Origin: Pseudomonas phage BRkr
Direction: 5' to 3' (one strand)
Length of the DNA stretch: 64,000 bases
Sequence record: LC765218.1
Under the pieces are notes generated by a model. That model made no database searches. It was not told the origin of the DNA and was given only the letters and a program-made list of their open reading frames with translations. Shown here one piece after another: positions 999 to 32,815 of this stretch. The translations under genes and the position numbers were made by a program. Numbering within the stretch: position 1 is the stretch's first letter; each line of letters opens with the position of its first letter.

Positions 999-1229
999 AT
1001 GGAAAAGAAATTCAAATGTGGTACGTTCATTCTCACCAATAATCAGGTAAAGAATGCCAAAGGTGAGATCTATATGGAAGCAGATCAACCGGGTCGAATC
1101 ATGGTAGTCGATCCGGCAAAAGCTCCATTGATGTATGGTATTCGTCGAGATGAAACCACCATCAATTACGTGTATGTCACTGAAACTGATATCCGTGTAA
1201 ATCCGGCGTTCCCTCTACCAAGTCTGTGA
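999..1229 (+). CDS. Hypothetical protein, 76 aa.
   Basis: GAGGTAAAC-ATG ribosome-binding site 8 nt after the previous stop. Confidence 0.5.
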   Translation: MEKKFKCGTFILTNNQVKNAKGEIYMEADQPGRIMVVDPAKAPLMYGIRRDETTINYVYVTETDIRVNPAFPLPSL

Positions 1230-1236
1230 GGTAAGC

Positions 1237-1596
1237 ATGGTATTTAACTGGGATACATCGGGAGCGAATAATATTCGTAACCTGATGCTCCCCGTTCAAT
1301 CGCCGTACTACATGAAGGTCTCGACCGAAGATGGTCGGGATCTTTTGTGGTTCGTTCGAAAGCGCGGTGAGAAGATTGCTGAATGGATCACTTCTTATGT
1401 TAATGAGGAGTTGGTCCGGTGGAAAGACTTCAAAACAGCTCAGCTTATGCTGGCACATGTAACCACTCAACCTGACCTACCTAAGTTGATCCTGGCAATG
1501 GGTGAAACTCCGGGTAATTACAAAGTTAAACTTGTGTATCTCCGCGATCATGAGATTGCGGCAAGTACAACTATCTCAATCGCTAAAGAGGAATAA
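1237..1596 (+). CDS. Hypothetical protein, 119 aa.
   Basis: GAGGTAAGC-ATG ribosome-binding site, operon-like packing. Confidence 0.55.
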   Translation: MVFNWDTSGANNIRNLMLPVQSPYYMKVSTEDGRDLLWFVRKRGEKIAEWITSYVNEELVRWKDFKTAQLMLAHVTTQPDLPKLILAMGETPGNYKVKLVYLRDHEIAASTTISIAKEE

Positions 1597-1599
1597 GTC

Positions 1600-2079
1600 A
1601 TGGCCTATAGCCTGGGTATCGCTGTACGTGATAGTTCGGTATTGATCGTCACCAACGATTTCAAATACGAGAACATTGTTCTGTTTAAACCTATCAATGG
1701 CATGAAGATCGAAGGTGCTTCTGTTCATCTGGTATGCATCTGCTTCGGTGACAAAGAGAAGCGTTCTCTGGTTCACGAGATCATGACCAACAACGAACGG
1801 ACCGACTACAGTCGTGAAGACATTCTGGCCATGATGACCGAGCATGGTGTGGAACTTCGCGTTATCGCCGACAAAGTGGTCCATGTATTCCAGAACATCC
1901 GGGATGTGGCTACACACGGGATCATCGATTCCAATACCACTACCTTCTGGTTTGGCGATACGGAGCATCGTAAACTGTTCTTCCCGTATTGTGGTAAAGA
2001 AGGTAAACCTTTCCGTCAAGCTTATCGTGACGAAGAACTCTGTCGTGTATTCGAGTTCGTAACCGTTATCAACCTGTAA
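1600..2079 (+). CDS. Hypothetical protein, 159 aa.
   Basis: AAGAGGAATAAGTC-ATG ribosome-binding site. Terminator hairpin at 2090-2117 follows. Confidence 0.55.
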   Translation: MAYSLGIAVRDSSVLIVTNDFKYENIVLFKPINGMKIEGASVHLVCICFGDKEKRSLVHEIMTNNERTDYSREDILAMMTEHGVELRVIADKVVHVFQNIRDVATHGIIDSNTTTFWFGDTEHRKLFFPYCGKEGKPFRQAYRDEELCRVFEFVTVINL

Positions 2080-21975: not shown

Positions 21976-22053
<78 letters not shown>

Positions 22054-26904: not shown

Positions 26905-28752
26905 TTAAATTCCAAGACGATAGAACTTGTCTGTAATTGTATTATTACTGGCTCCAGTTAGACCACCGCCAACATATGCTGTGCCATTAATAAATCCACC
27001 ATAGCCATCATTCACACCGTTTGGTAGTTCTGGTAGTTTACGCCAAGTTCTCGATTGGATATTATACGCATTGGCTTTTCTACGTTTGTCTTCGTCAACA
27101 CCGCCAATGTATATAATTTCTTCATCGTTAGTCAGCATTACACCGTAACTGTTAACACCTGGCCCATCGGTAGTCGGTAGAGACTCCCATGCAAATGTAT
27201 TCATATTCATTCGATCAAATCGACCGGATTGCGAACCATTTACAAATCCACCATAGACATACATGTACTCGCCGACAACAACCGCTCTATGTGAAGATCG
27301 TTGGATACCACCTTGCGCGACTCGTTTTGACCACATGTTAGATGCAATATCGTAGACGAACAACGCGTCAGATTCATTATTCCCGCCAAGCAAATAGAGC
27401 TTACCATTATAATGAACCATCGTAGCTTGTGTTCTAAATACTGGATTAGATGAACCCGGAGAAGCGGGTGTAATAGCCGTCCAATCATTGGTCGCTACGT
27501 TATAACGCCAGAAATCCGCTGATTGGTTAGATCCACTGAATAGGTACATATGTGTATCATTTGCAGCTGCACACATATTGGCACGTGCACTCGGACTTAA
27601 ACCAGATCCAGTGAATAGACCGTTCCATGTATTAGTCTCAGGATTATATTTATTAAACGCGCCTCTATATGCACCTGTACTTGTATACCCGCCGAACATA
27701 TACAGTTCATCATCTATTACAACCGCAGTGGAACCTCGACTATCATAAGGTGCGTTTGCCATTACTTCCCATTCAGTTTTACTTGGAGGGATAGGAATAG
27801 TGAATTTATAGATAGCTGCTTTCGTTCTTTCAGGGGTGTTAAAAAGGGCATCATCGATAACAATGTCCGAACCACCGATCAGATACAGATCGCCATTCGA
27901 TGGATTTAATGCGACTGATGTCCCATGGACCTCACCAATATTCGTCTCAGTAACAACAAATTGTTTTTCGGCGATATAATAACGAACACAATGAATCTTA
28001 CCATCTTTAACGATAGTGTAGTTAAAAGTCCCGTTCCAGTACTTACCACCTTGATGACCACCGTGGTAGTCTGTAGAGTATGAATGGTACAATGTCCATG
28101 TATTAATAGCACCGGTGTATTTATAAACATCTTGGTTAACAACCCAACTGCCAGAGATGTTCTTCCATCCACCCATCACATAGAAATTCCCTTTATGGCA
28201 GAATGCATACGCTCCAGATAGAATAACAGGGCACCGGGCACTCATTACTTCTCGAACGTTATTCGATAGTCTATAGCGAATCAAAAGATCTGTTGCATGT
28301 TCCAGTACCCAAATAAATTCACCGCCATCCCAATCGCCGATACTGTTATAAGTGGATGTATTCATCAACTGATTACTAATAAGATTATCATTAGGTACAG
28401 TTGGATTGATCATCGTGATGACGTTTTGTGTCCAAGAAGCGCCACGACGCCCACCGAACATGTAAAGTCTATCGGATGTTGGAACAAATACACCCGCCGT
28501 ATGACAAAGTGAATAACTATTTTGGACAGCTGTTTTACTGATTTGAGTACCAGTGCTATCAAAAATTCTGATGTTATTATCAGTTGTACTTCTTGATGGG
28601 GCACCACTATTAATATTTAATAAACCATTTCTGAAATAGGGTACCGATCCAACCAATCCAACATCCAGTTGTCCAAACAATGTTGGTTGGTTATACGGTA
28701 TCATTTCCACTGGCTTAGCTTGCCCAGCAGCTGATAACAATAATTCAAACAT
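26905..28752 (-). CDS. Kelch-repeat beta-propeller protein, 615 aa, probably two propellers.
   Basis: N-terminus MFELLLSAAG. At least ten blade motifs (LYMFGG, FYVMGG, LYLIGG, LYMFGG, MYLFSG, LYLLGG, MYVYGG and others). The 45-nt 5' leader is conserved with gene 30471..31478. Confidence 0.75.
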   Translation of the reverse strand: MFELLLSAAGQAKPVEMIPYNQPTLFGQLDVGLVGSVPYFRNGLLNINSGAPSRSTTDNNIRIFDSTGTQISKTAVQNSYSLCHTAGVFVPTSDRLYMFGGRRGASWTQNVITMINPTVPNDNLISNQLMNTSTYNSIGDWDGGEFIWVLEHATDLLIRYRLSNNVREVMSARCPVILSGAYAFCHKGNFYVMGGWKNISGSWVVNQDVYKYTGAINTWTLYHSYSTDYHGGHQGGKYWNGTFNYTIVKDGKIHCVRYYIAEKQFVVTETNIGEVHGTSVALNPSNGDLYLIGGSDIVIDDALFNTPERTKAAIYKFTIPIPPSKTEWEVMANAPYDSRGSTAVVIDDELYMFGGYTSTGAYRGAFNKYNPETNTWNGLFTGSGLSPSARANMCAAANDTHMYLFSGSNQSADFWRYNVATNDWTAITPASPGSSNPVFRTQATMVHYNGKLYLLGGNNESDALFVYDIASNMWSKRVAQGGIQRSSHRAVVVGEYMYVYGGFVNGSQSGRFDRMNMNTFAWESLPTTDGPGVNSYGVMLTNDEEIIYIGGVDEDKRRKANAYNIQSRTWRKLPELPNGVNDGYGGFINGTAYVGGGLTGASNNTITDKFYRLGI

Positions 28753-29477: not shown

Positions 29478-29526
29478 TTTCAGTATCTCCTATAACTCCG
29501 ATATTGGAGTATAACATCACGGCATA

Positions 29527-29551
29527 AAAGAGTAGCCAATGGCTACTCTTT
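29527..29551 (-). terminator. Hairpin AAAGAGTAGCC-AAT-GGCTACTCTTT directly downstream of the tRNA 3' fragment. It is a duplicate of the 30214-30237 hairpin.
   Basis: 11-bp stem. A paralogous tRNA-plus-hairpin module. Confidence 0.5.
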
Positions 29552-29557
29552 TGAATT

Positions 29558-29590
29558 TGGCTCCGCGACCTGGACTCGAACCAGGGACCC
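29558..29590 (-). tRNA. A 3' tRNA fragment (variable loop, T-arm, acceptor 3' strand and GCCA). It pairs with the 5' fragment at 30341-30374.
   Basis: The reverse complement reads GGGTC-CCTGG-TTCGAGT-CCAGG-TCGCGGA-G-CCA. The acceptor 3' strand TCGCGGA is perfectly complementary to TCCGCGA at the start of the 5' fragment. Confidence 0.5.
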
Positions 29591-29603: not shown

Positions 29604-30161
29604 TTATTGTGTGGGGACCAAGGTGCTAATACCCCCATTAGCACCGACCCTAATAAACCTAGCCGGAATATTGATCTTGTATGCTCGGCACCATTTACGA
29701 ATAGCGTTATCGGATACTCCATACTTCTCTCCTATTTTTACAAGTGATAGCAATGTAACATCGAGGGCAAGTTGTTCTTTGGATGGTCGATCCACCTTAC
29801 GACGACCTTTGGCTGAACACTCGGGGCTACAGAATGTTATCAGTCGGTGACTAATGACAATACCACAGCCAGCACAAAGCTTAGTTGGATAGTTCCTAGG
29901 ATCAATACCGAGCCGTTTCATCCAACCATGTAACTTCATGTGTTGTGACTGAGGGAGAATCAATAAGTTCTCTGGATGGTTGTTAAGCTTATTCTCATCC
30001 AGATGATGAACTTCCTCGTCATCGTAAAGTGGTCTACCTAATGTGTCTTCTCCAACCACTCGATGTTCGTAAACCCATCCAAACATTTTAGGGTTAGCTA
30101 TGGCTTGACGATGTTCGGGTAAATATAATGCCCTATAGCCGTTAATTATTTTCTCTTTCAT
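29604..30161 (-). CDS. HNH homing endonuclease, 185 aa, paralog of 21337..21900. It lies between the two halves of a split tRNA gene.
   Basis: HNH motif EVHHLDENKLNNHPENLLILPQSQHMKLH, a Cys cluster, and a basic C-terminal tail. Confidence 0.8.
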   Translation of the reverse strand: MKEKIINGYRALYLPEHRQAIANPKMFGWVYEHRVVGEDTLGRPLYDDEEVHHLDENKLNNHPENLLILPQSQHMKLHGWMKRLGIDPRNYPTKLCAGCGIVISHRLITFCSPECSAKGRRKVDRPSKEQLALDVTLLSLVKIGEKYGVSDNAIRKWCRAYKINIPARFIRVGANGGISTLVPTQ

Positions 30162-30213: not shown

Positions 30214-30237
30214 AAAGAGTAGCCGGAGCTACTCTTT
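30214..30237 (-). terminator. Hairpin AAAGAGTAGC-CGGA-GCTACTCTTT directly downstream of the GTT tRNA.
   Basis: 10-bp stem. Homologous to 29527-29551. Confidence 0.5.
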
Positions 30238-30242
30238 GAAAT

Positions 30243-30329
30243 TGGCTGGTAAGGTAGGATTCGAACCTACGATGGGCTTTCGCCAACGGATTAACAGTCC
30301 GCCCCCTGCTACCGCTCGGGTACTTACCA
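30243..30329 (-). tRNA. Atypical tRNA, 87 nt. It has a long Ser-like variable arm but anticodon GTT, which would read Asn codons.
   Basis: Acceptor TGGTAAG/CTTACCA (7/7), D-arm CCC-GAGCGGTAGCA-GGG, anticodon stem-loop GCGGA-CTGTTAA-TCCGT, variable arm TGGCGAAAGCCCATC, T-arm GTAGG-TTCGAAT-CCTAC, and a GCCA end. Confidence 0.6.
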
Positions 30330-30340
30330 AGAAAACTATC

Positions 30341-30374: not shown

Positions 30375-30470
30375 AGAATTATTAACAACTTCTTTCTTGT
30401 AGAAAAATCACAAGTAACTGAATTACAGTATTTCACTACATATTATTACAATCTGAGTTAGATAGTTATT

Positions 30471-31478
30471 TTAATCAATGGCTAATGGTGCTAGTTTTAC
30501 CTGATAGATACCTGATAACAATTGGCTTTTTAACATATATGCTCCACCACCAACTGGCATTTTAGATCCACCTGCAATGATCATGCTATTATCTGGTCCT
30601 TTGGCTATAGATGAAATATTAAGGAATCCAATACCTAGTTCAAATGGTTCAGCCCATTTCCGGCGCCTAATATTAAAACGCTGTGCAAACATTTTAGTTA
30701 CACCGCCGACATCAACTGCATTAAGGTAATTAAAATATTCCCCATCTACATAACCATTACCTTGCCATATTGTTGCTTTGTCAGCAGGTATTATTAGCCA
30801 TGGTGTTAGTTCCCATACAAGTGTAGTAACATTGTATCTATAGACTTCTAAGTTTGGTATGTTCTTAGTATTATCCCAGCCACCAAAATGGTAGAAATAA
30901 CCATTATAATAAAATAATTGTTGACCTGACCTAGGTCCACCGCTATAGTCTTGACCGCCGAGCCAGTTCTTAGTCGATGGTTTTAATCGCATGGCGTTTG
31001 TACCAACTGGATTAACACACATAATAAGATCATTGCCATCAGACGCTGACGCAGTTCCCCATAATGCACCAGGACCACTATAACGCTCAACGCGACTACC
31101 TGTGCTTATATCAAAATGTTGTATAAAGTTAGAAGTACCTGTACCCCCATCACCTGCTGCGTTCCATCCAGTAATACCACCATAAACAATAAAGTTATTT
31201 TTATGTAATGTACCAAATCCAAGTGATACACCCGGTAAAAATGTACCAGATGCTGTTGCGCTTATCTCTGTAAATGGGTTTATAGTGAACCGTCTGAAAA
31301 CAGTTGCTGCTGATTGTCCTTCCGTATGATGTCCGGATCCAACATATAACGTATTTCCATCTACGTACGACATCGTACCTGCCAATGCTACCGGTAGGTC
31401 ACCTAATTTTATAATTTCACTAAATCCAACCAAGGGTGTTTCATCGCCTAAACCTGATGATAATAGTAATTCAAACAT
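30471..31478 (-). CDS. Kelch-repeat beta-propeller protein, 335 aa.
   Basis: N-terminus MFELLLSSGLG. Blade motifs LYVGSG, FIVYGG, FYHFGG. The 5' leader is conserved with gene 26905..28752. Confidence 0.75.
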   Translation of the reverse strand: MFELLLSSGLGDETPLVGFSEIIKLGDLPVALAGTMSYVDGNTLYVGSGHHTEGQSAATVFRRFTINPFTEISATASGTFLPGVSLGFGTLHKNNFIVYGGITGWNAAGDGGTGTSNFIQHFDISTGSRVERYSGPGALWGTASASDGNDLIMCVNPVGTNAMRLKPSTKNWLGGQDYSGGPRSGQQLFYYNGYFYHFGGWDNTKNIPNLEVYRYNVTTLVWELTPWLIIPADKATIWQGNGYVDGEYFNYLNAVDVGGVTKMFAQRFNIRRRKWAEPFELGIGFLNISSIAKGPDNSMIIAGGSKMPVGGGAYMLKSQLLSGIYQVKLAPLAID

Positions 31479-32729: not shown

Positions 32730-32815
32730 TGGTACCCGGTGTCGGACTCGAACCGACACGGCTTTCGCCGAGAGATTTTAAGTCTCTTGTGTACTACCAA
32801 TTTCACCAACCGGGC
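32730..32815 (-). tRNA. tRNA-Leu with anticodon TAA, 86 nt, type II.
   Basis: Acceptor GCCCGGT/ACCGGGT, anticodon stem-loop AGAGA-CTTAAAA-TCTCT, variable arm CGGCGAAAGCCGTG, T-arm GTCGG-TTCGAGT-CCGAC, and an ACCA end. Confidence 0.8.

Follow-up and report, generated by a model that had tools for sequence, protein, structure and literature searches.

A long-variable-arm tRNA-Asn as probable cargo of an HNH homing cassette in a phiKZ-like Pseudomonas phage

The window analysed here, a stretch of 64,000 nucleotides (nt) from Pseudomonas phage BRkr (LC765218.1), encodes on its minus strand an 87-nt transfer RNA (tRNA) that combines the asparagine anticodon GUU with a long variable arm, an element classically reserved in bacteria for the tRNAs of Leu, Ser, Tyr and selenocysteine. 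The comparative analysis indicates that this molecule is probably a functional phage tRNA reading AAC and AAU codons as asparagine, that it belongs to a phage-specific family with a Tyr-like scaffold and that it is carried as cargo by an HNH endonuclease cassette. By sequence the window is that of a phiKZ-like Pseudomonas aeruginosa jumbo phage, with matches to phiLBG22 (99%), PA1C (97%) and phiKZ (about 86%), and the phiKZ orthologue of the long tRNA is PHIKZ_t02, annotated as tRNA-Asn.

Read on the minus strand, the RNA begins UGGUAAG UA CCC-GAGCGGUAGCA-GGG G GCGGA-CUGUUAA-UCCGU UGGCGAAAGCCCAUC and continues GUAGG-UUCGAAU-CCUAC CUUACCA G CCA, with a U1-A72 pair, the discriminator G73 and a CCA end encoded in the gene. 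ARAGORN, one of the programs that an earlier note on this DNA had named for a check, calls tRNA-Asn(gtt), while the Rfam tRNA family RF00005 matches with 54.2 bits compared with a gathering score of 29 (E=6.9e-09), the extra arm being handled as an insertion. The cloverleaf is complete, with a 7-base-pair (bp) acceptor stem, a D arm with G18G19, a 5-bp anticodon stem with a 7-nt loop containing U33, a 5-bp T stem with a UUCRA loop, the discriminator and CCA. The D stem has 3 bp and an 11-nt loop starting GAGCGGU, in which four bases (U-A-G-C) lie between G19 and position 22 compared with two in canonical phage tRNA-Asn. Class I tRNAs possess a variable loop of 4-5 nt, which is GGGUC in the canonical phiKZ tRNA-Asn, as opposed to the 15-nt region with a hairpin in the long tRNA. 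On its own the sequence has a minimum free energy fold that comprises the cloverleaf and the GGC/GCC hairpin; its z-score of only -2.0 is weak evidence, and the real support therefore rests on comparison. Every structural detail given in the earlier note is present on the minus strand, and the alternative it had considered, an unusual class II tRNA-Asn, has gained support, as the molecule is a class II-like tRNA-Asn that fits neither the class I tRNA-Asn architecture nor Ser or Tyr identity.

The earlier note had assigned the molecule to a Ser-type scaffold, a label which the comparison with phage tRNAs encoded on the same contigs as long-arm tRNA-Asn (n=36 for Ser) does not sustain. The variable region of long-arm tRNA-Asn has a modal length of 15 nt with a stem of 3-4 bp, 3-5 unpaired nt 3' of the stem and the discriminator G. 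The corresponding values are 14 nt, 3 bp, 3 unpaired nt and A for phage tRNA-Tyr and 18-19 nt, 4-6 bp, 0-1 unpaired nt and G or U for phage tRNA-Ser. Judged against a Ser arm with a stem of 4-7 bp and 0-1 unpaired 3' base, the window molecule has 3 bp and four unpaired bases; 26 of the 36 phage tRNA-Ser have 0-1 unpaired bases and 31 have G-C at positions 1-72. Both G1-C72 and G2-C71 are conserved in bacterial tRNA-Ser (PMC9976931), and the long tRNA possesses G2-C71 and G73 among the positions tested for Ser conservation, with U-A at 1-72. With the anticodon masked, similarity reaches 69 for other long-arm tRNA-Asn, 49 for a long-arm tRNA-Lys(CUU) of a Caulobacter phage, 37.5 for Tyr, 27 for Ser and 26 for Leu, and the D arm CCCGAG(C/U)GG...GGG with G13-A22 corresponds to that of phage tRNA-Tyr. 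Cumulatively, arm geometry, masked similarity and D arm point to a scaffold that is closest to bacterial tRNA-Tyr and not to tRNA-Ser, and a Ser-type scaffold was rejected on arm geometry, the 1-72 pair and masked similarity.

The likeness to tRNA-Tyr is confined to the D arm and the arm geometry, as the Tyr identity elements A73, G1-C72 and GUA are replaced by G73, U1-A72 and GUU. A73 is essential for Tyr and Leu identity and G73 is an antideterminant for TyrRS and LeuRS (PMC9976931). With U36, G73 and U1-A72 the long tRNA should thus not be a substrate of TyrRS. An origin from a remoulded tRNA-Tyr gene through changes of A36 to U, A73 to G and G1-C72 to U1-A72 is plausible.

Far from being unusual for a phage tRNA, as the earlier note had it, the molecule belongs to a large phage-specific family. 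With the tRNA alone as query, BLAST finds it at 100% identity in phiHQ and at 95-97% in phiKZ-type phages and, outside the Pseudomonas phages, matches the tRNA-Asn of phage T5 (83 nt), Proteus phage Stubb (85 nt) and the T4-like Serratia phage X20 (84 nt), as well as a tRNA-Lys(CUU) of 90 nt and the same design in Caulobacter phage CcrPW. A long-arm tRNA-Asn(GUU) is also encoded by P. syringae phage Psa21 (genus Tepukevirus). The matches to the whole tRNA are annotated as Asn, in a few cases as Lys and once as Tyr, with zero Ser, and GUU is conserved across phage genera along with compensatory stem changes, at variance with the recent GCT-to-GTT point mutation that the earlier note had envisaged. 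A scan of IMG/VR with a pattern satisfiable only by long-arm tRNA-Asn (GACTGTTAATC, 5-10 nt, GAAA, 6-14 nt, GGTTCGAATCC) retrieved 73 viral contigs, in which ARAGORN identified 72 tRNA-Asn(gtt) of 81-89 nt with 52 distinct sequences. In 185,579 species genomes of bacteria and archaea the same pattern matched just three contigs, all from metagenome-assembled genomes (MAGs) and two of them with tRNA arrays. A cellular origin was rejected on the basis of this genome scan, and a one-off anticodon mutant on the basis of the BLAST and IMG/VR survey. A BLAST search with a GC-rich family member (contig L059) gave no match in cultured phages.

Within the parsed set of 59 distinct long-arm tRNA-Asn sequences, G73 is found in 57 and the acceptor, anticodon and T stems are paired to about 100% with many pair types. 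The three pairs of the extra arm next to the GAAA loop are formed in 100%, 100% and 87% of sequences (n=55) with 4-5 pair types each, values reached in none of 2000 shuffles, while a fourth pair occurs at chance level; the conserved feature of the variable region is thus a short hairpin of 3 bp, sometimes 4 bp. Between the window and phiKZ, 4 of 87 positions of the tRNA differ, all of them unpaired (two D-loop bases, position 26 and a base of the variable region's 3' tail), in a setting where the adjoining spacer and upstream DNA have strongly diverged. The tRNA of Psa21 has kept its fold although the neighbouring HNH protein is only 66% identical, with the extra-arm stem altered from GGC/GCC to UGC/GCA and two T-stem pairs changed on both sides. 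These compensatory changes, together with the confinement of substitutions to unpaired sites, are strong evidence for a functional RNA with an extra arm that is itself under selection. Within metagenomic arrays, Ser(GCU/UGA) and Tyr have genes of their own and the place of Asn is taken by the long-arm gene, with no other Asn gene in 53 of the 72 stretches fetched.

The identity of bacterial tRNA-Asn is determined by the anticodon and G73 (PMC9976931), and the long tRNA possesses both GUU and G73. [quoted passage not shown] The versions from Pseudomonas phages (window, phiKZ and Psa21) have the required U1-A72 pair. Phages that infect E. coli, Salmonella, Proteus and Serratia, hosts which have AsnRS, have G1-C72 in their long-arm versions. 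The 1-72 pair fits an adaptation to the Asn route of the host, as seen over few host genera, and U1-A72, G73 and GUU fit an asparagine identity acquired through the ND-AspRS/GatCAB route of Pseudomonas. The host ND-AspRS would recognize the GUU anticodon and G73 and attach Asp to the long tRNA, which GatCAB would convert to Asn; G73 would block TyrRS and LeuRS, and the 3-bp arm with four unpaired 3' bases would, together with U1-A72, make the molecule a poor substrate of SerRS. The anticodon-based annotation as tRNA-Asn is probably right, though isotype models may flag a mismatch. T5 has a single tRNA-Asn, encoded by the long-arm gene of 83 nt. T5 tRNA-Asn(GUU), expressed along with the tRNA-Lys and tRNA-Thr of the phage, rescues cells and phages from the PARIS defence system, the AriB nuclease of which cleaves the host tRNA-Asn(GUU) (PMC12409363). 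This rescue is the one indirect indication that the long-arm type is charged with Asn in vivo.

The earlier note had also placed the tRNA within a disrupted tRNA locus, which was borne out by the recovery of both parts of a canonical tRNA-Asn gene on either side of it (Table 1).

Table 1. Features of the interrupted tRNA-Asn locus in the window
Feature	Positions	Strand	Basis or remark
Long-variable-arm tRNA-Asn(GUU), 87 nt	30243..30329	minus (30329 to 30243)	ARAGORN and Rfam; homologue of phiKZ PHIKZ_t02
Variable region UGGCGAAAGCCCAUC, 15 nt	30271..30285	minus	1 unpaired nt, GGC-GAAA-GCC hairpin, 4 unpaired nt
Invariant block ACTCAGATTGTAATAATATGTAG, 23 nt, upstream of split gene	30436..30458	minus	Identical in window, PA1C, phiKZ, 6B and PA7
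Canonical tRNA-Asn 5' half, positions 1-34 of 76 nt, cut in anticodon loop	30341..30374	minus	Exact pattern match, none in shuffles
Spacer GAUAGUUUUCU, 11 nt, left end of insert	30330..30340	minus	Diverged from phiKZ spacer CGAUUUCAU
Terminator-like hairpin AAAGAGUAGC-UCCG-GCUACUCUUU directly 3' of long tRNA	30214..30237	minus	Read from sequence
HNH endonuclease gene, 185 amino acids, homologue of PHIKZ296	29604..30161	minus	Open reading frame and Pfam HNH_3
Canonical tRNA-Asn 3' part, positions 44-76	29558..29590	minus	Pattern match with 1 mismatch, none in shuffles
Terminator-like hairpin of original canonical gene, AAAAGAGUAGCC-AUU-GGCUACUCUUUU	29526..29552	minus	Resembles hairpin after phiKZ t03

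The 5' half aligns to the intact tRNA-Asn genes t03 of phiKZ and copy 2 of PA7, the 3' part comprises the variable loop, T arm, 3' acceptor strand, G73 and CCA, and the acceptor strands of the two (5' UCCGCGA, 3' UCGCGGA) are complementary. The long tRNA and the HNH gene constitute an insert of about 750 bp in the anticodon loop of this gene. In phiKZ and phage 6B the split arrangement is complete, with a 5' half ending in ...CUGUUA (position 37) and a 3' half resuming with AUCACU (position 38), and the insert of phiKZ, exactly 774 bp long, lies between A37 and A38 with no exon bases lost. Positions 35-43, present in phiKZ, are missing from the split gene of the window, where 33 nt including positions 38-43 were lost between two ACT repeats. 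The 3' half of the phiKZ reference is mutated, with a decayed T-loop. The split halves are, as judged from these changes, decaying as pseudogene fragments, and the two fragments should be labelled in the annotation as disrupted tRNA-Asn.

A hairpin of the same type as that directly 3' of the long tRNA follows phiKZ t03, and the hairpin itself is conserved in phiKZ with compensatory changes; a second hairpin with a U-rich tail (30203 to 30182) was flagged by the scan. The sequence around the invariant 23-nt block diverges among the five phages that share it, and the block is a candidate phage promoter that could drive both the 5' remnant and the long tRNA. A promoter scan detected no sigma-70-like site on the tRNA strand at the locus, as expected because the phage uses its own RNA polymerases. 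The split halves also differ coordinately, with C5-G68 in the window and PA1C and U5-A68 in phiKZ (compared with L002, 3745-3778 and 2929-2961), a pattern suggestive of homing into different alleles on separate occasions or of gene conversion with an intact copy as donor.

The HNH protein matches Pfam HNH_3 with 41.2 bits compared with a cut-off of 24.8 (E=1.3e-10), and its homologues in phiKZ (88.6% amino acid identity) and Psa21 (66%) are each encoded directly downstream of the long tRNA. Phage PA7 has an intact 76-nt tRNA-Asn exactly at the insertion site, between the homologues of PHIKZ297 and 295.1, with 120 nt upstream identical to phiKZ and a single nucleotide difference downstream, so that the insert is a presence/absence polymorphism; KTN4 lacks this tRNA-Asn copy altogether. 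PA7 encodes two identical intact canonical tRNA-Asn genes about 2 kb apart (L085, 4170-4245 and 6296-6371), and KTN4 (L086) only one; therefore, the copy number of the homing target itself varies among phiKZ-like phages. Among Pseudomonas phage records, BLAST detects the long tRNA in about 25 compared with 93 with a match to the canonical tRNA-Asn. As far as the sequences tell, this polymorphism of occupied and unoccupied sites is that expected of a homing-endonuclease element, and the HNH gene product is likely the homing enzyme of the cassette.

The order of tRNA followed by HNH gene recurs in Psa21, along with a decayed remnant of the 5' half, and on the unrelated contig L032, where an HNH protein 42% identical in the zinc-finger/helix-turn-helix region is encoded downstream of a long-arm tRNA-Asn. 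The likeness of this protein (open reading frame 1166-1720, minus strand) to the HNH protein of the window is confined to the C-terminal part, amino acids 65-163, and the association with tRNA-Asn genes may lie with the DNA-binding module instead of the nuclease domain. In tblastn searches with the HNH protein, homologues lay beside the long tRNA in only 3 of the 73 metagenomic loci, so the link between tRNA and HNH gene is not general. The 60 best hits, with identities down to about 80%, included no intact canonical tRNA-Asn for PA1C, phiLBG22 or phiHQ; the long-arm gene thus appears to be the only phage tRNA-Asn in the lineage of the window, where the cargo would have taken over the Asn role.

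The arrangement as proposed would be a free-standing HNH homing cassette composed of spacer, long-arm tRNA, terminator and HNH gene, with the long tRNA as cargo. The cassette would have inserted between positions 37 and 38 in the anticodon loop of a canonical phage tRNA-Asn gene, thereby destroying its target and yet supplying a replacement tRNA-Asn. The long tRNA is probably transcribed from the promoter of the interrupted gene and released by RNase P.

Two alternatives are about equally improbable. The tRNA might be a passenger relic, non-functional or a dispensable hitch-hiker of a young, selfishly spreading HNH cassette, considering that phiKZ also retains the intact canonical t03, that many close relatives do not have the cassette and that the phiKZ transcriptome papers are silent on t02. 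Yet the tRNA evolves far more slowly than spacer and flanks with substitutions that avoid the stems, the compensatory changes in Psa21 have arisen at an HNH protein identity of 66%, most of the 73 metagenomic arrays harbour the same tRNA type without an HNH neighbour, and the PA1C lineage offers no intact canonical tRNA-Asn among the 60 best hits. The second alternative is an RNA that acts independently of translation, as a decoy or inhibitor of a host tRNA-targeting nuclease or tRNA-binding factor, or that is charged with Asp and poorly amidated. A molecule of this kind would not be expected to keep all features of a tRNA, from the 7-bp acceptor and encoded CCA to G73, U33 and the CUGUUAA anticodon loop, nor to have a 1-72 pair that tracks the charging route of the host and to occupy the Asn slot in arrays; the idea draws on the remark of the PARIS authors that overexpressed viral tRNAs might competitively inhibit AriB (PMC12409363) and on the enlarged D-loop, which is a GatCAB antideterminant in other tRNAs.

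A mistranslator, which SerRS would charge through arm and G73 and which would insert Ser at AAC and AAU codons, is very unlikely. The long arm, G73, G2-C71, C11-G24 and the 3-bp D stem with its 11-nt loop starting GAGCGGU speak for it, the same D stem and a loop of the same length and beginning being present in E. coli tRNA-Ser. SerRS moreover ignores the anticodon and relies mainly on the long arm, of which it reads size and orientation (PMC9976931). It is however in length and geometry that the arm is unlike that of phage tRNA-Ser from the same contigs and like that of tRNA-Tyr, the conserved G1-C72 is replaced by U1-A72, and masked similarity to Ser (27) falls behind that to Tyr (37.5) and to long-arm Lys and Asn (49-69). 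GUU has been kept across genera by genes that fill the Asn slot beside genuine Ser genes, and the T5 homologue helps to restore growth and infection when the host tRNA-Asn is cleaved (PMC12409363). As Asn codons make up 5.8% of codons in the long open reading frames of the window, a Ser-inserting tRNA, apparently the sole phage tRNA-Asn, would be very costly and would damage nearly every phage protein. Misincorporation of Ser by the long tRNA is thus unlikely.

A group I or other intron, by removal of which the 750-774 bp insert would restore the canonical tRNA-Asn and leave the long tRNA as an intron-borne extra, is scarcely credible and was rejected in spite of the precise phiKZ insertion at 37/38 and of the group I introns at 35/36 in tRNA-Asn of Patescibacteria (PMC13011429), as Rfam scans of window and phiKZ found only tRNA and no intron family even at E<=10, the 3' junction is not preceded by G and the junction bases in general do not fit a group I intron, which has U before its 5' splice site and G at its 3' end, only about 110 nt of the insert are neither tRNA nor open reading frame, too little for a catalytic core, and the exons are incomplete in the window and decayed in the T-loop of the phiKZ 3' half.

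With respect to the function of the arm, it is most likely an adaptation, although any specific role is speculative. On the RNA level the arm could act as a shield against tRNA-cleaving defence nucleases such as AriB of PARIS. The AriB cut falls in the 3' strand of the anticodon stem, between positions 40 and 41, and in an AlphaFold 3 model a second AriB monomer grips U16-U17 of the D-loop, with a U16-to-C change impairing cleavage (PMC12409363). The extra arm emerges immediately 3' of the strand that is cut, and the long-arm tRNAs are devoid of nucleotide 17. The T5 tRNA-Asn retains the cleavage-site sequence of the host, UAAUC|C, so that any resistance would need to originate elsewhere in the molecule. 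The anti-PARIS tRNA-Thr(UGU) of T5 is likewise long-armed with 87 nt, and Thr(UGU) and Asn(GUU) are both targets of AriB. On the DNA level the arm could render the gene immune to endonucleases that target tRNA genes: through the arm the T-arm sequence is displaced by about 10 bp relative to the anticodon stem, and the T4 endonuclease SegB reads tRNA-gene DNA through the TΨC motif (PMC2330249). A joint reading, in which such 'armoured' phage tRNAs block AriB-type nucleases or homing endonucleases and in which the phiKZ-type cassette homes while neutralizing the damage through a resistant replacement tRNA, is offered tentatively, as a possibility rather than an expectation. The armoured set may comprise Asn, Thr(UGU), Lys, Met, Trp, Cys and Ile with a short arm capped by a GNRA loop. 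If true, the cassette would be a new type of selfish element, which offsets its damage by a replacement tRNA of the same isotype rather than by splicing.

Several observations weigh against the proposal of a functional long-arm tRNA-Asn carried by a homing cassette and against the role ascribed to its arm. The statistics on the family are conditional on a pattern that fixes GTT, the GAAA loop and the TTCGAATCC T-loop, which are not independent observations, and few host genera underlie the association of the 1-72 pair with the host pathway. Position 10 of the long tRNA is C, and G10 is an AspRS element in E. coli and yeast. The two extra D-loop bases after G19 are at odds with the absence of a supernumerary base as preferred by GatCAB, an antideterminant that has been described for tRNA-Asp and tRNA-Glu (PMC9976931, PMC2330236), and transamidation of the long tRNA might be inefficient due to the enlarged D-loop. 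Some serylation is conceivable, as G2-C71, C11-G24, G73 and the long arm are common to the long tRNA and tRNA-Ser. The phiKZ transcriptome papers report six tRNAs and two tRNA-associated start sites and nothing specific to t02. Cleavage of the tRNA-Asn gene by the HNH protein is a reading of the insertion polymorphism. The PARIS paper (PMC12409363) did not examine cleavage of T5 tRNA-Asn and does not mention the arm, the role of which is speculative.

Extra arms were also observed on further tRNAs of class I isotypes. On the same phage contigs tRNAs of at least 81 nt account for 16 of 43 Thr(UGU), 10 of 74 Met, 7 of 35 Trp, 5 of 26 Cys, 4 of 30 Ile(GAU), 5 of 78 Lys, 3 of 32 His and 3 of 54 Asp. 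Genes for such long-arm tRNAs are located for example at L084 6134-6220 (phage T5_ev212) and L012 4406-4492, with others among IMG/VR contigs L009-L079, and the long-arm tRNA-Thr(UGU), 87 nt in T5, is found in 92 T5-like records. Some metagenomic phages encode tRNA-Asn genes in tandem about 6-8 nt apart, either a canonical and a long-arm copy or two long-arm copies (L060, 5983-6069 and 6075-6148; L017, 7658-7746 and 7752-7827; L021, 4225-4313 and 4321-4405), and contig L017 carries in addition two 91-nt long-arm tRNA-Lys genes (UUU, CUU). Elsewhere in the window, the tRNA-Leu(UAA) at 32730-32815 has a variable-arm hairpin, GGCGAAAGCC, identical to that of the long tRNA-Asn, which shared ancestry, recombination or coincidence could explain, and in the Rfam alignment the 78-nt tRNA-Thr(UGU) at 21976-22053 has two inserted nucleotides where the T stem starts (CGAucGGG), a lesser deviation from canonical length. 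The region of the tRNA-Asn cassette is flanked by two paralogous PHIKZ298-like genes on the minus strand (26905-28752 and 30471-31478), which both start with MFELLLS and are each closely followed downstream by a tRNA gene, tRNA-Tyr in one case and the split tRNA-Asn in the other; the shorter paralogue has weak Pfam Kelch matches near the cut-off.

Annotation of a tRNA-Asn in phiKZ-type genomes is already known, and the T5 homologue has a published biological role. Within the incomplete coverage of the literature search, no description was found of an extra arm on tRNA-Asn, of a phage-specific family or of a tRNA-carrying HNH cassette. A conserved long-arm tRNA-Asn, encoded even by T5 and phiKZ, would imply that class IIb-type recognition, by AsnRS or by ND-AspRS and GatCAB, tolerates an extra helix. 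As two of the three PARIS-neutralizing T5 tRNAs, Asn and Thr(UGU), have extra arms, the arm is also a candidate explanation for the escape of phage tRNAs from tRNA-targeting immunity. The locus in addition documents a putative homing-endonuclease cassette in occupied, unoccupied and decayed states, and a cassette that resides within a tRNA gene along with its own substitute tRNA would be a different answer to the problem which introns solve by splicing.

Among individual tRNAs, the closest counterpart is phiKZ PHIKZ_t02 (RefSeq NC_004629), a direct orthologue with 95% identity in the same cassette with the HNH gene PHIKZ296 and in the same split gene, which in phiKZ is however complete (positions 1-37 and 38-76) and accompanied by a second, intact canonical tRNA-Asn, t03. 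The T5 tRNA-Asn(GUU) (PMC12409363) shares GUU, G73, the GAAA-capped 3-bp hairpin, the UUCGAAU T-loop and the location in a phage tRNA array, but it has G1-C72, its D stem is 4 bp long with a loop of 7 nt and its variable region measures 13 nt, and its gene is surrounded neither by an HNH cassette nor by a split target gene. Bacterial tRNA-Tyr has in common with the long tRNA G34 and U35, the D arm with G13-A22 and a variable stem of 3 bp with 3-4 unpaired bases behind it, whereas the long tRNA has U36 in place of A36, G73 in place of A73 and U1-A72 in place of G1-C72. With bacterial tRNA-Ser and the allo-tRNAs, which have Ser identity but non-Ser anticodons (PMC5389517), the molecule shares the long arm, G73, G2-C71 and an anticodon at odds with its scaffold class; compared with tRNA-Ser its arm is shorter and of another geometry, G1-C72 is absent and similarity is low, and its standard acceptor/T-stem lengths of 7/5 set it apart from the allo-tRNAs, whose 12-bp acceptor branch is divided 8/4 or 9/3.

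Among mobile elements, T4 SegB (PMC2330249) is also a phage endonuclease that recognizes tRNA-gene DNA and drives co-inheritance with adjacent tRNA genes. While SegB is a GIY-YIG enzyme encoded between tRNA genes, the HNH gene of the window is located inside the tRNA gene that was split, and the cassette brings along a structurally different tRNA of the same isotype. The Patescibacteria group I introns within tRNA-Asn and tRNA-Asp (PMC13011429) likewise are mobile inserts that interrupt the anticodon loop. Those introns, on the other hand, are located at 35/36, are self-splicing and mostly lack endonuclease genes, whereas the insert of the type seen in the window is located at 37/38, has no detectable ribozyme and carries a whole replacement tRNA.

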